From Staphylothermus hellenicus DSM 12710 (GTDB taxonomy: Archaea; Thermoproteota; Thermoprotei_A; Sulfolobales; Desulfurococcaceae), in assembly GCF_000092465.1 (NCBI RefSeq), contig NC_014205.1:480001-512000 (forward strand): DNA of 32,000 nucleotides, read 5' to 3'. Below are positions 4,205-11,550 of the stretch, in pieces. The translations under genes were made by a program, and so were the position numbers. Numbering within the stretch: the stretch's first letter is position 1; every line of letters begins with the position of its first letter. The notes beneath the pieces are model-generated. The model worked only from the letters and a program-made list of their open reading frames with translations. It ran no database searches and was not told the origin of the DNA.

Positions 4205-4588
4205 CTACCTATAGGTTGCCTCTCCACCCTGCTTCTTCAGAGTTTCCCTTAGCTCTTTGATTCTCTCCTCTACAGATCTGAGCTCCTCCTGCAACTCCTT
4301 GAGATCCTCTTCCAAAGCTTTCTTATAGTCTTCGAGCATCGCTAATTCTTCTTCAGGGCTCATAGGGAGTGGCGGTGGCGGAAAATATGGTGGAACCGGC
4401 TGATACACTGGTTGTGGTGGTTGAGGGGGCCGCCATTGTTGTTGAGTGGGTTGTTGTACTTGTTGGGTTTGTTGCTGTGGCTGTGTTTGTTGTTGGTATG
4501 GGTATTGGTATGGGTATGGTGGAGCATACCATGGTGGTGGCGGTGGAGGCCTATATCTTTTCATTATTCTATACCACCAATAGCTCAT
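4205..4588 (-). CDS. Pro/Gln/Tyr-rich low-complexity protein with C-terminal coiled coil, DUF5320-like
   Basis: 127 aa. Residues 1-75 are almost only P, Q, Y and W (RPPPPPPWYAPPYPYQYPYQQQTQPQQQTQQVQQPTQQQWRPPQPPQPVYQPVPPYFPPPP). Residues ~76-120 form a charged heptad-like helix (SPEEELAMLEDYKKALEEDLKELQEELRSVEERIKELRETLKK) that matches my memory of the conserved C-terminal helix of DUF5320 proteins. It is the last gene of a 4-gene collinear set, 15 nt after the upstream stop. Confidence 0.65.
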   Translation of the reverse strand: MSYWWYRIMKRYRPPPPPPWYAPPYPYQYPYQQQTQPQQQTQQVQQPTQQQWRPPQPPQPVYQPVPPYFPPPPLPMSPEEELAMLEDYKKALEEDLKELQEELRSVEERIKELRETLKKQGGEATYR

Positions 4589-4603: not shown

Positions 4604-4858
4604 TTAGCTCTCACTTGTCTTCGTATATGTTTTATATTGTTCAAGGCTCTTAATGAATGTCTCCATAGTTTTTCTCCAAGTATCAAGCATTGTTCTATAG
4701 ATCTCGATTGTCAACATATAGTAGTATGGATATATCATGTACTGGGTCATTACTGCTGTTAAATATTCTGGGTCATAGAATGGATAGCATCCGTAGGGAG
4801 GTATAGGGGCTGGTGGATAAGCATAGTACCATTTAGGTGGAGGCGGATACCAGCTCAT
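4604..4858 (-). CDS. Pro/Tyr/Trp-rich small protein with helical C-terminal half (unknown function)
   Basis: 84 aa: MSWYPPPPKWYYAYPPAPIPPYGCYPFYDPEY followed by a Tyr/Met-rich and then amphipathic segment (TMLDTWRKTMETFIKSLEQYK). The start is 4 nt after the stop of the upstream gene, with GGTGGTGA as a possible ribosome-binding site. The strand is inferred from the operon arrangement. Confidence 0.55.
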   Translation of the reverse strand: MSWYPPPPKWYYAYPPAPIPPYGCYPFYDPEYLTAVMTQYMIYPYYYMLTIEIYRTMLDTWRKTMETFIKSLEQYKTYTKTSES

Positions 4859-4862
4859 GGCT

Positions 4863-5153
4863 TCACCACCAGCCCCACCATGGTCTAAAATAATAATATG
4901 GTGCCGGATAATATGTTGGAGTATACGGTGTTATATATGGAGTAGTATAGTATGGGTAGTAGTACCAGGGATACCAGTAGTATCCGAGCCATGGATAAAA
5001 CCATCTATATGCTCCTCTCCCAAGGATCCATCCTGGCCTCTGCCATGGTGGTAAATAGCTGAAGGGGCCTTTTCCCGGCCATGGTCCGCGCCAGCCTCCT
5101 TTACCTTTACCCCAACCCCATCCTCCAAACCATGGGAACCAAGCCATATACAT
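4863..5153 (-). CDS. extreme Trp/Tyr/Pro/Gly-rich small basic protein (unknown function)
   Basis: 96 aa. Hand count: W16, Y19, F5, P16, G15 (71 of 96 residues), 8 K/R, no D or E. The N-terminus (GGWGWGKGKGGWRGPWPGKGP) resembles the Gly/Arg/Trp tail of the upstream NifX-like protein. GGAGGTG sits directly upstream (reverse complement of 5155..5161). Its spacing favours the second ATG (Met3, 5147) as the true start. Confidence 0.6.
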   Translation of the reverse strand: MYMAWFPWFGGWGWGKGKGGWRGPWPGKGPFSYLPPWQRPGWILGRGAYRWFYPWLGYYWYPWYYYPYYTTPYITPYTPTYYPAPYYYFRPWWGWW

Positions 5154-5225
5154 ACACCTCCTGGAATTGCTTCATTGATAGATATAGTCATAGAGGTTAA
5201 TAAAAAATTGTTCATATGCATAAAA

Positions 5226-5708
5226 TCACCTAATAAGACCCGCCCCTCTAAGAGCATCAACGACCCTAGAACCAGGAGGGACAGAGTAGACACTAATACC
5301 TTGTTGTTGAAGCATAGCTTGTGCATTAGGGCCAATAGTAGATGCTATAACAATTCTCGCACCAGCCCCCGCAACGAACTGGGCAAAGGCGAAACCAGCT
5401 CCTCCACCCCCCATAGCATAGGGGTTCTGCACCGGATATATATTGGCTATGTTACCATTTACTATATCGATGAATAATATAATTGGAGCACGCGCGAAGA
5501 CCGGTGAAACATGCGATTCTAAACCATTATTGTCATCAACACATACAGCTGCTCTAACACCATTAGGTGGGGGCGGCGGTAATTGTGGCTGAATAGGTTG
5601 ATAAGGCTGAAAACCACCGGGGCCTCCGCCTGTCCATCGAGGCCCGCCTCTGCCTCTACCCCATCCCTTACCTCTACCTTTACCCCATCCATAACCTTGC
5701 CAAGCCAT
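5226..5708 (-). CDS. NifX/NifB-C-type (dinitrogenase FeMo-cofactor biosynthesis, Nitro_FeMo-Co) domain protein with Gly/Trp/Arg- and Pro-rich N-terminal tail
   Basis: 160 aa. Residues ~50-160 (RAAVCVDDNNGLESHVSPVFARAPIILFIDIVNG ... GGGGAGFAFAQFVAGAGARIVIASTIGPNAQAMLQQQGISVY) follow the pattern of the Nitro_FeMo-Co domain: HFGxAxxFxIxD ... G.GAG...A..L...G...VI....G..A...L...GI.V. Residues 1-49 are MAWQGYGWGKGRGKGWGRGRGGPRWTGGGPGGFQPYQPIQPQLPPPPPN. Confidence 0.8.
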   Translation of the reverse strand: MAWQGYGWGKGRGKGWGRGRGGPRWTGGGPGGFQPYQPIQPQLPPPPPNGVRAAVCVDDNNGLESHVSPVFARAPIILFIDIVNGNIANIYPVQNPYAMGGGGAGFAFAQFVAGAGARIVIASTIGPNAQAMLQQQGISVYSVPPGSRVVDALRGAGLIR

Positions 5709-7285: not shown

Positions 7286-7578
7286 CCTCCAATTCTTTCT
7301 ATATTGCTACTCAGAATTTACGAGGATTATTAGCAACGGTTTTATTCCCCCTTTCAATTCTTTCTAAGTTGTTACGAGATCAGACTATGAAATATTTTCT
7401 AGACCCAAGCGATTAGCCTTTCAATTCTTTCTACGTTGTTACATGACTAAGGCAGTTAATCTATTAGCAAACACAACAGTATTCCCCTTTCAATTCTTTC
7501 TGTGTTGTTACTTAACAACGGAGTAGTTCATATAGTGTTTAGCTTAAAGGTGGCTTTCAATTCTTTCTGTGTTGTTAC
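7286..7578 (-). CRISPR. orphan mini CRISPR array, 5 repeats / 4 spacers, transcribed on the minus strand
   Basis: The 25-nt repeat is CTTTCAATTCTTTCTGTGTTGTTAC. Copies at 7554..7578 and 7487..7511 are identical. Copies at 7418..7442 (CTACG variant) and 7351..7375 (CTAAG variant) each carry 2 mismatches. The copy at 7286..7310 is degenerate with 5 mismatches. Spacers are 42, 44, 42 and 40 nt and are unrelated to each other. The reverse complement, GTAACAACACAGAAAGAATTGAAAG, ends in ATTGAAAG, the canonical 8-nt crRNA 5' handle. That sets the orientation and places the leader at the high-coordinate end, where the repeats are intact. Confidence 0.85.
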
Positions 7579-7880: not shown

Positions 7881-8600
7881 TTAATATAAATGATTTATTA
7901 TTGGTTTTATTTCTTCGATGTATGGTTTTGCGTATTCTGTGTTTAGGAATTCTTTTATGGTATATTTTCCGATGAGTTTGCCTTTGTTTATATATGCTAT
8001 GTGGTCTCCTAGATCTATTGCTTCGATAATGTCGTGTGTTACGTGTATTGCTGTGAATTTTATTTTCTTTCTTAGTTCTTTGATGAAAGATCTTATTTTA
8101 ACCTTGTTTTCTGGATCAATGTTTGCAAGTGGTTCGTCTAGGAGAATTATTTTGGGTTCAACTATGAGGGCTCTTGCTAGTGCGACTCTTTGTTTTTCTC
8201 CGCCGCTGAGTGTGTCTGGTTTTCTCTCGAGTAAATGCTGGATGCCTAGAATCTTGCTGATCTCATAGATTCTTTTCTCGATAACATCCTTGTCGATACC
8301 TCTGATCATGAGTCCGAAGCCTATGTTTTCCTTAACAGTCATGTGTGGGAATAGGCCGTAGTCTTGAGGTATTAATACGAATCCTCTCTTCTCGGGTGGT
8401 AGCTCGGCTATGTTTTTATTATTTACAAGTATTTCTCCATGGAGGGGTTTATGGAATCCTGCGAGTGTGTGGAGAAATACTGTTTTTCCTACACCGCTTG
8501 GACCCATAACTATTAAGTATTCGTTATCGTTTATGCTGAGATATGGTATGCTTAGTTTAAAACTGCCTATTTCAACGTATAGGTCACGTATCTCTATCAT
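7881..8600 (-). CDS. wtpC: tungstate/molybdate ABC transporter, ATP-binding protein
   Basis: 239 aa with Walker A GPSGVGKT, signature LSGGEKQRVALARAL, Walker B ILLDEP and H-loop VTHD. Its ATG overlaps the upstream stop (ATGA at 8597..8600). Confidence 0.85.
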   Translation of the reverse strand: MIEIRDLYVEIGSFKLSIPYLSINDNEYLIVMGPSGVGKTVFLHTLAGFHKPLHGEILVNNKNIAELPPEKRGFVLIPQDYGLFPHMTVKENIGFGLMIRGIDKDVIEKRIYEISKILGIQHLLERKPDTLSGGEKQRVALARALIVEPKIILLDEPLANIDPENKVKIRSFIKELRKKIKFTAIHVTHDIIEAIDLGDHIAYINKGKLIGKYTIKEFLNTEYAKPYIEEIKPIINHLY

Positions 8601-9397
8601 TTCCTAAACAGCACCCTTATACCTATGAATGCTAGAAGCGATAATAATACGACTATTGATGATAATGCTGTTGTATATTTTAATCCATAAGTATTAAACC
8701 ATTCATAGATCAATACATTTATTGTTTTCGGATAATATGCTACAATAAGTATAGAGCCAACCTCGCTCAACGCCCGGGCCCATGAAAGCAGGAACCCAAC
8801 AATTATATTAGGTAGTAATAGAGGCAGGGTTATCTTTGCAAAAGTTACCCATCTATTTGCACCCAAACTTCTAGCAACAAGCTCTAAAGAAACACTGATC
8901 TTTTCATAACCAAGCTTTAAAGTATCAATCATTATTGGGAAAGAAACAAACAGCATAGCCGCGACAATTCCCCAGAAGCTATTCTCTACAGAAAACCCTA
9001 AAACACGGGGTAGATCATCAAATAATCCATTATGTCCATAAGCTAGTAGAATCATTATTCCAACAATCGTGTGTGGAATCATTAATGGAACATCTATAAG
9101 CCCCTCAACTAATTGTTTCCCCCTAAAACTATAGCGAGCCAATAAATAACCCGTAGGAATACCTATGACTAAAAGTATTAGTGTAGAAGTTATCGATGCT
9201 TGAATAGTCAATAACAATGCTGGATATGCTTGGCGAGAAAACACATTATCTTGTAGCCATACCTGGGAAAATGTTTCTGGATCAACACTTATGAATAAAG
9301 CAATTATTGGTGATAAAATAAGTAAAATACCTAAAGAAGACACAGCTATAAAGACTAATAAAAAACCCTCAATTCTCCTAAGACCCTGAACCAACAA
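8597..9397 (-). CDS. wtpB: tungstate/molybdate ABC transporter, permease
   Basis: 266 aa, a multi-helix BPD-type permease. It contains an EAA-like loop region (ELVARSLGANRWVTFAKITLPLL). It overlaps wtpA by 20 nt and wtpC by 4 nt. Confidence 0.8.
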   Translation of the reverse strand: MLVQGLRRIEGFLLVFIAVSSLGILLILSPIIALFISVDPETFSQVWLQDNVFSRQAYPALLLTIQASITSTLILLVIGIPTGYLLARYSFRGKQLVEGLIDVPLMIPHTIVGIMILLAYGHNGLFDDLPRVLGFSVENSFWGIVAAMLFVSFPIMIDTLKLGYEKISVSLELVARSLGANRWVTFAKITLPLLLPNIIVGFLLSWARALSEVGSILIVAYYPKTINVLIYEWFNTYGLKYTTALSSIVVLLSLLAFIGIRVLFRK

Positions 9398-10418
9398 TGC
9401 TACCTAACTCCTCCGGAACCTCTCCATAAACTATAAACTTCTCGAGATATGGCTGACCATTTTCCTCGAAGATTTCTCTACCAGTATAACCTAGTAGGAA
9501 TTCTAGAAACTTTAAAGCTTCACTCCTATTTGGCGCATTATCGAGAACTGTAACACCATATATTATTGGAGACATTGCCAAAGATTTTTCCTTATCAGTT
9601 CCAACAAGTATTTTTACAATAACTTTTCCATAGAAATCACCATATTCTGGATTACCTAGGTTTATTTGATCAGGTAGCCTAATATATTTTAAGTGATGCT
9701 GGACAGCAACACTTAGATATTCAAATGCGTAATCAATTGTTCCAGCTTCAACAAGCGATATTAAATCAACACTTTTAGATCTAATAATTAAATTACTATT
9801 CTCTCTAACCCTTAGATCAGCTGGGACAATTAAGTCTAAGGTATCATTAACTCTCTCCACTTCAATATTTGTTTTGTTAAGCAGTAAGTTCTCAAGAATG
9901 CTTGTATCATTATAATATATTGATGCCAAACCAATTATGCCTACCGAGCGATAACCGCATGGATCCTTGTTTGGATCAGAAAAGCCCCATTTCACATTGT
10001 TTCTCATCAAGATCCTGTACCATTCACTTGGATTATTTTCTAGTATTTCATGGTATTTTGATTTATCAGTATATATAAGCACTACTTGGTTTGTTGCAAA
10101 TCCTATATACCAACTAGTATGGTTTGGGACTAGGAATTTTGGAATAAGTCTATAATCAGCTACTGCGATAATATCGGCTTCTCTCCCAAGATCGGTTACT
10201 TTACGAATAGCTTCAACACTGCCACTGGCTTCAATATATATGTTTACCCCATACTTTTCCCTATACTTTGAAGCCGTCTCATCTAATGGTATTTTCAGTG
10301 AACCAGCAGTAAATATTATGATTTTAGAGGTATTGGCGGTGTGTGCATAGTAGTAGTATCCGGTGAGCGATGCTATGATTAGAACAATGATTATTATTGA
10401 TGTTTTTAGCTTATCCAT
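9378..10418 (-). CDS. wtpA: tungstate/molybdate-binding protein (extracytoplasmic solute-binding component)
   Basis: 346 aa with an N-terminal membrane anchor. Long stretches match my memory of Pyrococcus furiosus WtpA: FTAGSLKIPLDE, EASGSVEAIRKVTDLGREADIIAVADYRLIP, WGFSDPNKDPCGYRS, PIIYGVTVLDNAPNR. Confidence 0.85.
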   Translation of the reverse strand: MDKLKTSIIIIVLIIASLTGYYYYAHTANTSKIIIFTAGSLKIPLDETASKYREKYGVNIYIEASGSVEAIRKVTDLGREADIIAVADYRLIPKFLVPNHTSWYIGFATNQVVLIYTDKSKYHEILENNPSEWYRILMRNNVKWGFSDPNKDPCGYRSVGIIGLASIYYNDTSILENLLLNKTNIEVERVNDTLDLIVPADLRVRENSNLIIRSKSVDLISLVEAGTIDYAFEYLSVAVQHHLKYIRLPDQINLGNPEYGDFYGKVIVKILVGTDKEKSLAMSPIIYGVTVLDNAPNRSEALKFLEFLLGYTGREIFEENGQPYLEKFIVYGEVPEELGSIVGSGS

Positions 10419-10435
10419 GTAGATCGCCGACTTAT

Positions 10436-10459
10436 TAATTATCGGATATCCGATAATTA
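10436..10459. promoter_or_regulatory. perfect 24-nt palindrome in the wtpA promoter; candidate operator of the adjacent ModE-type regulator
   Basis: TAATTATCGGATATCCGATAATTA is self-complementary over all 24 positions (checked base by base). It lies 18-41 nt upstream of the wtpA ATG (10418). A TATA-like TTTTTATATTTC box (minus strand, 10474..10485) lies between the palindrome and the stop of the upstream regulator gene (10492). Confidence 0.5.
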
Positions 10460-10491
10460 GGCCTACTAATAATGAAATATAAAAATCTTAC

Positions 10492-11550
10492 TTAGAAAAA
10501 CAATACTTCGCCAATGTTCTCAGGTACTTTGTAGCCAGGCATGCTTTTTATTTTTTCAATAAATTCTTTCGACTTAATTGTTTCTGTTAGGTCTTTATAG
10601 AATTTGTTTTCTATCTTGTCCCTTCTAATAACTATGTCGAAGTTCTCCCATTTAATATGTTTGAAGTATAGGTTGTATGCTTTGGCAGCCCATTCAATAC
10701 CTATTCCTATATCTGCTTTACCTGTGGAAACTTGTTCAGCGACTTCTAAGTGAGTATATGCTATGTTCTTGTATCCTTTAATCCTCGACCTAATAATGTC
10801 TATTTTGGTATTCCTTTTCTCAGCTTCACGTTTTAGGATATATTCTAGTAATTGCCTACTACCAGATCCCTCGTTTCTATTTATAAGCCTATATGTTCCG
10901 TTGACGAGTTTTTCGATGATCTCTTCATAAGTAGTTTTAGATCGTGTTATAAAACCTATACTTCTAAGCCAGCCTCTTATCAGTGCTAAACTTGTTGAAC
11001 CACCATATTTCTCTATAAACGATACATTGTATTCGCCAGTATCGGGATCTAGTAGGTGTGTGCCGGAGAAGTCTGCTTCACCAAGTATTATGGATGATAA
11101 ACCCTTTAATGAGCCGATCCAGTGTACTTCGACAACGTATCCTTTATCTCTCAATAAACCCGTTAAATAATTTATTAGGATATCGTGGCTTCCAGCATAC
11201 ACGTATATTTTCTGTAAAGCCCCGGGTTTACGGGGTATTTCTACATGGAACTCCCTATGAAAATATTTTTTATAAGCAGAAATGTATCTCTCCAACAAAT
11301 CCAGGCCAACACTTGTTAGAGTTGCACCGCCTCTAGCACCACGATGCTTTTCAACAACCCGCCTACCCAGGATATTCTCTATTCTCGTCAACATATCCCA
11401 AGCACTACTATATGATAACCCTAATACGCGGCTAGCAGACAATATCGAGCCTAAACGATTAATTAAATATAATAGCTTAGCAGATAACTCATCCAACACC
11501 ACGTATCCATCCAGAACAAGTTTAAGCTCCAAATATTCTCTCAAATCCAT
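10492..11550 (-). CDS. molybdate/tungstate-responsive transcriptional regulator candidate: ModE-type N-terminal HTH fused to a periplasmic-binding-protein-like domain
   Basis: 352 aa. The N-terminus (LINRLGSILSASRVLGLSYSSAWDMLTRIENILGRRVVEKHRGARGGATLTSVGLDLL) closely follows the ModE N-terminal HTH pattern (SxxxAAxxLGxSYxxAWxxI..............GGxxGGGAxLTxxG). The remaining ~250 aa look like a PBP-type ligand-binding fold. It lies directly upstream of wtpABC. Confidence 0.75.
   Translation of the reverse strand: MDLREYLELKLVLDGYVVLDELSAKLLYLINRLGSILSASRVLGLSYSSAWDMLTRIENILGRRVVEKHRGARGGATLTSVGLDLLERYISAYKKYFHREFHVEIPRKPGALQKIYVYAGSHDILINYLTGLLRDKGYVVEVHWIGSLKGLSSIILGEADFSGTHLLDPDTGEYNVSFIEKYGGSTSLALIRGWLRSIGFITRSKTTYEEIIEKLVNGTYRLINRNEGSGSRQLLEYILKREAEKRNTKIDIIRSRIKGYKNIAYTHLEVAEQVSTGKADIGIGIEWAAKAYNLYFKHIKWENFDIVIRRDKIENKFYKDLTETIKSKEFIEKIKSMPGYKVPENIGEVLFF

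Follow-up and report, generated by a model that had tools for sequence, protein, structure and literature searches.

A Trp/Tyr-rich, acid-free archaeal protein from Staphylothermus hellenicus that resembles a free-standing IssA tail and may serve iron-sulfide assemblies

IssA of Pyrococcus furiosus (PF2025) joins a Nitro_FeMo-Co domain to a 70-residue tail that is Pro-rich and then cationic, aromatic and Gly-rich, contains one Cys, is predicted to be unstructured and has been proposed to wrap anionic thioferrate, (FeS2-)n (PMC5524996). P. furiosus without IssA still makes thioferrate-like particles (PMC8219758). Tails of the IssA type were delimited by Vaccaro et al. (2017) through an attached IPR003731 domain, an isoelectric point (pI) of at least 9, fewer than 5 Cys and at least 20% Gly in the tail; PAP_06520, an IssA/SipA orthologue of the Thermococcales, has been reported to be strongly induced by elemental sulfur (S0). 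A second described system, the Orp complex of Desulfovibrio vulgaris, combines the MinD-like proteins Orp3/4 with the Nitro_FeMo-Co protein Orp8, occupies a polar position and has a putative link to division (PMC6345978). Here, we analyze a small gene, referred to as FAM, in a 32,000-nt stretch of the genome of Staphylothermus hellenicus DSM 12710 (NC_014205.1, positions 480,001 to 512,000; hereafter the window, whose coordinates we use throughout), and tentatively suggest that its product acts as a disordered, cationic-aromatic subunit of an iron-sulfide assembly related in kind to these two systems.

In composition and layout, as read from sequence, FAM is the free-standing counterpart of the cationic and aromatic tail of IssA. 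Like that tail, it is cationic, aromatic and predicted to be unstructured and carries a Gly/Trp/Arg repeat, its N-terminal repeat region resembling IssA tails, and its family members usually have one Cys and often end in WW; the tails of Thermococcales IssA/SipA orthologues follow the pattern (GWGRG)n-ARLGYCPWTGxPSRR-...-GWW. FAM genes lie beside Nitro_FeMo-Co genes and, in Thermococcus aggregans, within the IssA locus. Measured against the published description of such tails, FAM has an overall pI of 9.7, no Cys (one in most relatives), a Gly/Trp/Arg-rich composition and a predicted local distance difference test score (pLDDT) of 46. It differs from IssA in lacking a Nitro_FeMo-Co domain, which is instead encoded in the adjacent gene at 5226..5708, in having an invariant PFSYLPPWQRPGW core that is missing from IssA tails, and, in the window protein, in having Tyr in place of the usual Cys; by this analogy, thioferrate binding by FAM is putative. 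The likeness to the Orp complex (DVU2103-DVU2109) lies in the gene neighbourhoods of FAM relatives, which hold an Orp8-like single-domain Nitro_FeMo-Co protein and paired MinD-like ATPases with two ferredoxin motifs (Orp3/4-like). The ATPases are missing from the window, however, and the portions of the Orp literature available to us describe no FAM-like subunit; Orp is bacterial and sigma54-regulated, whereas the regulator candidate near FAM relatives is the DNA-binding protein DUF134. Looser analogies are provided by the SgpA/B/C envelope of Allochromatium sulfur globules, RGG/Tyr condensate proteins and indolicidin-type Trp/Pro/Arg peptides, all small, repetitive, cationic or neutral proteins combining aromatic residues with Gly/Pro, which coat sulfur, self-associate by cation-pi contacts or bind interfaces. 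Signal peptides direct the secretion of Sgp proteins and antimicrobial peptides; we know of no invariant 22-residue core in any of these analogues, and no sequence relationship is expected.

The elements of the FAM gene and its product are the following.

4863..5147, minus strand: FAM coding sequence, 94 aa from the second ATG (MAWF...), or 96 aa with the ATG at 5153
5155..5161, minus strand: Shine-Dalgarno-like GGAGGTG, 7 nt upstream of the ATG at 5147 and 1 nt from the ATG at 5153
5197..5207, minus strand: TATA-like TTTTTTATTAA, in the 72-nt gap after the NifX-like (Nitro_FeMo-Co) gene
5094..5147, minus strand: N-terminal Gly/Trp/Lys(Arg) cationic repeat, residues 1-18 MAWFPWFGGWGWGKGKGG, recognized by family composition and likeness to the tail of the NifX-like protein
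5007..5093, minus strand: invariant family core, residues 19-47 WRGPWPGKGPFSYLPPWQRPGWILGRGAY, from two family alignments; the core alone has no Pfam match
4866..5006, minus strand: Tyr/Pro/Trp-rich, acid-free tail, residues 48-94, ending WWGWW, its composition kept in 65 aromatic-type relatives

The full open reading frame (ORF) at 4863..5153 (minus strand) translates to the 96 residues MYMAWFPWFGGWGWGKGKGGWRGPWPGKGPFSYLPPWQRPGWILGRGAYRWFYPWLGYYWYPWYYYPYYTTPYITPYTPTYYPAPYYYFRPWWGWW, with 16 Trp, 19 Tyr, 5 Phe, 16 Pro, 15 Gly, 3 Lys, 5 Arg and neither Asp nor Glu. Set against the window's 23 long ORFs (Trp 1.5%, Tyr 5.1%, Asp+Glu 11.5%; window G+C, 37.8%), this composition is extreme, since the binomial P values are 1.5e-12 for Trp, 1e-6 for Tyr and 1e-5 for the lack of acidic residues. 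FAM is also the highest in Trp+Tyr among all 68 window ORFs of at least 60 aa in six frames. The actual product is probably the 94-aa form starting at 5147 (11.9 kDa, pI 9.7, net charge +8), because homologues begin MAW or MGW and keep a GAGGTG/GGTG box 6-9 nt upstream. We detected no transmembrane segment or signal-peptide h-region, the Kyte-Doolittle average over 19-residue windows peaking at −0.18. An original prediction made from the sequence alone had counted the same residues, had placed the GGAGGTG box ideally for the second ATG and had seen neither a signal peptide nor a membrane segment, and our recount, the 7-nt spacing with its equivalent in relatives and the hydropathy profile agree with it on each point. 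The TATA-like element at 5197..5207 is possibly FAM's own promoter, as TTTATA boxes occur at comparable distances upstream of FAM relatives. In four of these (L058, L060, L074 and L081), a conserved upstream element, ATGCACAAAATTTATA, comprising a TATA box and a possible operator, stands ~30-45 nt before the start; its window counterpart at 5197-5222 reads ATGCATATGAACAATTTTTTATTAA, and we regard the two as a candidate site for DUF134 or another regulator.

The protein divides into three parts. N-termini across the family are composed of 38% Gly, 18% Trp and 14% Arg, and residues 1-45 of FAM have a pI of 11.7; here GGWGWGKGKGGWRG resembles GYGWGKGRGKGWGRGRGG at the N-terminus of the adjoining Nitro_FeMo-Co protein. 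The core that follows has the family consensus W-x-x-P-W-P-G-x-G-P-F-S-Y-L-P-P-W-Q-R-P-G-W-x-x-G-R-G-A-C, within which lies the almost invariant stretch WPGxGPFSYLPPWQRPGW..GRGAC, and 16 core columns are invariant over 65 aligned sequences. GRGA is followed by Cys in 208 of 235 relatives, while the window FAM has Tyr47 and a 95%-identical relative has Cys at residue 47. Comparison of the window with the closely related contig L084 (described below) revealed a reciprocal swap, residue 47 of FAM (5007-5009) being Tyr in the window and Cys in L084 and residue 24 of the next protein, YP84 (~4787-4789), being Cys and Tyr, respectively. The tails of 65 aromatic-type relatives average 18% Tyr, 15% Pro and 11% Trp, lack Asp and Glu in 47 cases and end in WW in 21. 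A Trp+Tyr content of 36% puts the window FAM at the top of the family range without making it unique. Residues 49-89 of FAM hold no Lys or Arg, and the protein would therefore be hard to detect by tryptic proteomics. AlphaFold2, run with a 65-sequence alignment, returned a pLDDT of 46 and a predicted template modeling score (pTM) of 0.18; within the tail, pLDDT was below 50 over residues 48-71 and 78-94 and ~50 between them, and helices were predicted at low confidence only (pLDDT <=59), none of them amphipathic. By this model, FAM is predicted to be intrinsically disordered, with no autonomous fold.

The FAM gene is real and under purifying selection. L084 is a metagenomic contig with the same gene order and DNA 88% identical to the window, and against it FAM shows a ratio of non-synonymous to synonymous substitution rates (dN/dS) of 0.10 (17.5 synonymous and 8.5 non-synonymous differences), dropping to 0.03 in the aromatic tail, below the values of the flanking genes (0.23 for the NifX-like gene, 0.21 for YP84). 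Comparison with two more distant Staphylothermus/Desulfurococcales loci again gave 0.10. These values bear out the original proposal that selection maintains the composition. Furthermore, when the window was compared with 14 relatives, the FAM frame alone was open at every one of the 15 loci, so neither a disrupted frame nor a different conserved one was seen among them. An overlapping +1-frame ORF (4931..5335, minus strand, 134 codons) could mislead gene callers; this frame is open for 103 codons in the window because DNA rich in TGG, TAT, CCA and GGA lacks stops, and in relatives the alternative frames are broken, with a longest open stretch of 36 codons (L005, L006, L028). The exact FAM protein, its alternative starts and the alternative-frame ORFs are absent from a collection of 15 billion proteins, as is the exact product of the nearby CC127 gene, though same-genome neighbours are present. 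Searches of the region found no structured RNA or tRNA, and DNA tandem repeats, considered as the origin of the tail, were rejected, as only a weak 14-nt, 2-copy signal appeared.

We next asked how widely the family extends. The original prediction knew of no characterised family of this composition, and indeed FAM matched nothing in Pfam (E<=1, then E<=10) or NCBIfam, nor did the family profile match any PDB sequence. A search for archaeal relatives, which it had also proposed, was productive: a single-sequence search retrieved 18 homologues, a profile search at least 730 protein clusters, and a scan of one archaeal genome per species at least 180 loci. These loci belong to Desulfurococcales, Thermofilaceae, Thermoproteales, Bathyarchaeia, hot-spring Nitrososphaeria, Hadarchaeota, Methanomethylicota, Methanodesulfokora, Thermococci, Geoarchaeota, Wolframiiraptor, Culexmicrobium and a Hodarchaeaceae metagenome-assembled genome. 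On sequence grounds, FAM is a member of a large, uncharacterised archaeal family and not an orphan. Two types are distinguished by what follows the core: about half of the members carry a Tyr/Pro/Trp tail that is nearly free of acidic residues, and the rest carry a coiled coil. An exhaustive hidden Markov model (HMM) search with the family profile yielded 93 representatives and reached no classical bacterial DUF5320 protein and no Nitro_FeMo-Co fusion; long matches made up of many stretches, such as P0123, were discarded as spurious repeats.

The coiled-coil relatives tie this family to DUF5320 (PF17253), the name NCBI gives them. With the same core motifs, they score 27.2-30.9 bits against a Pfam gathering score of 27 bits. 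When coiled-coil members were split, 24.8 of 27.4 bits came from the coiled coil and the core alone scored nothing; in P0026 and P0033, the match nonetheless reaches profile position 18-19. The window FAM stays below the gathering score and has its tail where DUF5320 has a C-terminal coiled coil (profile ~65-99), and its lack of a DUF5320 match follows from the coiled-coil origin of the Pfam score. The window FAM has its core motifs in common with the coiled-coil relatives, which also keep the family's gene company (DUF134, Nitro_FeMo-Co proteins and MinD-ferredoxin ATPases); in S. hellenicus the coiled-coil half is a separate gene at 4205..4588. Judged by its sequence, the product of that gene, CC127, corresponds to the C-terminal half of DUF5320, and FAM is most aptly read as the putative N-terminal half of proteins that make up a separate, DUF5320-like subfamily in archaea. 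Fusions of Nitro_FeMo-Co and DUF5320 exist. A literature search found no paper treating the FAM family and no function for DUF5320 or DUF134. Bathyarchaeia and Nitrososphaeria loci encode two additional kinds of small paralogue in which this coiled coil is combined with other aromatic motifs (L011 6207-6978; L019 6826-7071; L046 6322-7165; L051; L055): type 1, classical DUF5320-like, has the motif RRNMYYLTGIPGWMRFGYSPGW, and type 2 has GRCRWFPWLPRRWW, which stands in for GRGAC in the family members L034, L037 and L077.

Gene company was recorded by labelling neighbours within 5 kb at 80 loci by phmmer, with the proteins of the window and of locus L001 as queries. DUF134 and coiled-coil genes were each found at 54 loci, Nitro_FeMo-Co genes at 46, paired MinD/ParA-ferredoxin ATPases at 34 and YP84 genes at 16. 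When the set was narrowed to 38 non-redundant loci flanked on each side by 4 kb or more, the respective counts were 28 for DUF134, 33 for the coiled coil (separate or fused), 21 for Nitro_FeMo-Co, 14 for the ATPases and 9 for YP84. The neighbouring Nitro_FeMo-Co proteins have three architectures, namely an N-terminal GWGRG tail with a Pro-rich linker, as in the window; a coiled coil with a GWGRG (GWR) tail and the domain; and the domain with a GMGRG tail and a coiled coil. Some family members fuse the FAM core to a coiled coil, and a Cys motif, HxxCxH[FY]xNGxC-x12-13-ACxxFxPK, is appended C-terminally to the FAM core in some proteins and to Nitro_FeMo-Co proteins (Thermococcus) in others; by its pattern, it is a possible metal or cluster site (examples are L014 1926-2357, P0133, P0146, L057 233-793 and L085 5001-5588). 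Among the computational results, this shuffling of modules speaks most strongly for a shared function. T. aggregans, whose genome is complete, has a 68-aa FAM member (26% Trp) that overlaps the stop codon of a Nitro_FeMo-Co gene, and the two are translationally coupled; ~5 kb separate the pair from the IssA orthologue, which has an N-terminus identical to the one that the published PF2025 primer encodes, and the pair adjoins a third Nitro_FeMo-Co gene and two MinD-ferredoxin ATPase genes. Another Thermococci genome has a FAM gene beside feoB, feoA and a large ORF assigned by eye to a flavoprotein-like oxidoreductase family. FAM therefore sits in a conserved Fe-S-related neighbourhood that exchanges modules with it, and this company points to iron-sulfur storage or handling.

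The window holds a compact version of this neighbourhood. On the minus strand, the Nitro_FeMo-Co gene, FAM, YP84 and CC127 follow one another with gaps of 72, 4 and 15 nt, and the flanking proteins are identical to ADI31660.1, ADI31658.1 and ADI31661.1. The genes around FAM are the following.

5226..5708, minus strand: Nitro_FeMo-Co (NifB/NifX-family) protein, 160 aa, ADI31660.1, PF02579 at E 6.8e-16
4604..4858, minus strand: hypothetical protein YP84, 84 aa, ADI31658.1, with a Tyr/Pro-rich N-terminus and a helical C-terminus, starting 4 nt past the FAM stop
4205..4588, minus strand: CC127, 127 aa, aromatic at its N-terminus (MSYWWYR) and Pro/Gln-rich in the middle, carrying a conserved coiled coil PEEELAMLEDYKKALEEDLKELQEELRSVEERIKELR

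ADI31660.1 has an N-terminal GWGKGRGKGWGRGRGG tail (pI 11.6) and a Pro-rich linker and, as far as sequence allows, is IssA-like with the tail at the opposite end. The GWGKGRGK/GWGRGRGG stretch of this tail is encoded by a 24-nt tandem repeat at 5647-5701 (minus strand; 2.3 copies, 81% matches). The original prediction of a module shared between FAM and its NifX-like neighbour is supported beyond this locus, since the Gly/Trp/Arg tail, the coiled coil and the Cys motif are shuffled between the FAM family and Nitro_FeMo-Co proteins of other genomes; the one point to correct is that the neighbour's tail is N-terminal and not C-terminal. In CC127, the conserved segment runs PEEELAMLEDYKKALEEDL...EERIKELR, with a weak DUF5320 match (E 0.025, profile positions 65-98) and Prefoldin_2 as the best Pfam match; oligo-T runs lie downstream. 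Thermococcus onnurineus TON_0914, annotated 'prefoldin subunit alpha', was detected only on sulfur and is encoded near SipB (TON_0916) and SipA (TON_0919) (PMC4463584); given the Prefoldin_2 match of CC127, it might be a CC127-type protein. SipB itself (PF2026/TON_0916) was rejected as a FAM orthologue because it is annotated as an ATPase C-terminus. At ~2 kb from the cluster, a short CRISPR array (7351-7578, plus strand) has four direct repeats (Rfam CRISPR-DR27, 38-43 bits) ~67 nt apart. Further on (7881-11550, minus strand) lie genes for an ABC transporter comprising an ATPase, a permease and an SBP_bac_11 molybdate/tungstate-type binding protein, followed by a PBP_like + HTH_1 regulator. 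From its domains, this is likely a Mo/W uptake operon, and its position ~2 kb from the Nitro_FeMo-Co gene may be coincidence. Proteins of the Orp8 type bind Mo/Cu-sulfide clusters.

Combining these observations, we propose that FAM is an adaptor or coat subunit of an IssA/Orp-like iron-sulfide assembly, a tentative reading to which we give somewhat less than an even chance. FAM would be produced jointly with the IssA-like Nitro_FeMo-Co protein, whose gene immediately precedes it, and the Arg/Lys-Trp repeats of FAM would attach to the anionic, thioferrate-like iron-sulfide polymer or cluster built on the Nitro_FeMo-Co domain, the lack of acidic residues avoiding repulsion. The invariant core could dock on a conserved protein partner or supply a single Cys ligand, and the Tyr/Trp/Pro tail would glue subunits through pi-pi and cation-pi contacts with YP84 and CC127 and through multivalent self-association. 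The outcome would be the protein matrix or coat of a particle for Fe-S storage or hand-over. The thioferrate-like particles of cells without IssA leave room for additional proteins such as FAM.

Several findings weigh against this proposal. The window FAM has Tyr47 where the Cys is near-invariant, neither DUF134 nor MinD-ferredoxin ATPases are encoded in the 32-kb window, and at 17 of the 38 full-flank loci neither a Nitro_FeMo-Co nor an ATPase gene lies within 4 kb. The invariant 22-residue core exceeds what non-specific electrostatic binding would need. When the FAM family was aligned to Thermococcales IssA tails with hhalign, the probability was 7.6% over 5 columns (GWGRG); as nothing beyond GWGRG aligned, the likeness to IssA is compositional, architectural and contextual, and homology is not demonstrable. 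Moreover, the tightest partners of FAM are the coiled-coil protein and DUF134, with which a regulatory role fits equally well.

A more specific and improbable version of the iron-sulfide reading has FAM and its aromatic and coiled-coil neighbours forming the protein matrix of intracellular, thioferrate-like storage bodies in sulfur-reducing archaea. A heat-stable, disordered protein rich in stickers (up to 26% Trp) would nucleate, cap or solubilise an inorganic Fe-S polymer, and the PFSYLPPWQRPGW core would act in Fe-S hand-over as a docking or ligand motif of a new sort. This version, if true, would explain the thioferrate-like particles of cells without IssA.

The regulatory alternative, which we likewise consider unlikely, is that FAM, alone or with its coiled-coil partner, is a cofactor of DUF134, its RGG/aromatic regions binding DUF134 or nucleic acid and modulating transcription of local Fe-S genes. 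DUF134 is one of the two commonest neighbours, often divergently transcribed ~400-900 bp away, and has a W/R-rich GRGRPPK stretch at its N-terminus; 17 loci hold only FAM, coiled-coil and DUF134 genes, and the invariance of the core would suit a specific protein-protein interface. However, divergent transcription of regulator and target usually means no more than that the regulator, here DUF134, controls the operon, FAM is strongly constrained in a window that has no DUF134 gene, and the fusion partners found for this family are coiled-coil and Cys-motif parts and, in the case of tail modules, Nitro_FeMo-Co parts, DUF134 being among none of them.

It is more doubtful still that FAM is a membrane-interface or scaffold protein for MinD-like Fe-S ATPases in an Orp-type complex, which its Trp/Tyr tail would position at the lipid interface or in a condensate, with a possible link to cell division as for Orp. 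The ATPase pairs at 34 of the 80 loci and a summed Wimley-White interfacial free energy of −38 kcal/mol for FAM are consistent with such a role, and D. vulgaris Orp has the same components, a polar location and a putative division link (PMC6345978). On the other side, the ATPases are the least constant of these partners (14/38) and are missing from the window, the predicted helices of FAM include no amphipathic one, and the accessible Orp reports mention no FAM-like subunit.

We hold it to be very unlikely that FAM is the substrate peptide of a radical SAM enzyme, with Trp/Tyr cross-linking of a RiPP-like (ribosomally synthesized and post-translationally modified peptide) or cofactor-like kind, or a secreted Trp/Pro/Arg-rich membrane-active peptide. 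An invariant core combined with an aromatic-rich region would fit a substrate, the cationic, acid-free Trp/Pro-rich composition recalls indolicidin-type peptides, and at 16 of 80 loci a member of one radical SAM family is encoded at a distance of 0.7-5.5 kb, with three copies in the T. aggregans locus. Yet the radical SAM gene is never directly adjacent, varies in strand and is missing from 64 of the 80 loci and from the window, and its product matches no specific maturase family. FAM has no signal peptide, the conserved neighbours include no transporter or protease, and antimicrobial peptides evolve fast whereas the FAM core is invariant across phyla. The radical SAM proteins themselves share the signature MIAFGPVPSRRLG...CxxxCxxC, with no specific NCBIfam match (examples are L077 7557-8528, L082 6801-7751, and L085 522-1475 and 8996-9949). 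Finally, a chance ORF, or a true gene in another frame or strand, is refuted by the dN/dS of 0.10, the frame open in 15 of 15 loci while others break, and hundreds of homologues, despite the open +1 frame in the window and the absence of the exact protein from a collection that holds both flanking S. hellenicus proteins.

For the storage, detoxification and transfer of iron sulfide in anaerobic archaea, IssA is to our knowledge the sole characterised thioferrate protein. Encoded in or beside IssA/Orp-like loci in at least 10 archaeal lineages, FAM is a testable candidate for a missing component, and through its relatives DUF5320 becomes linked by fusions to the IssA tail and to Nitro_FeMo-Co proteins. 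Its 22-residue motif is kept from Thermococci to Thermoproteota, Bathyarchaeia, Hadarchaeota and an Asgard lineage, which is unusual for a protein predicted to be disordered, and two of the organisms that encode it, S. hellenicus and T. aggregans, are both cultured.

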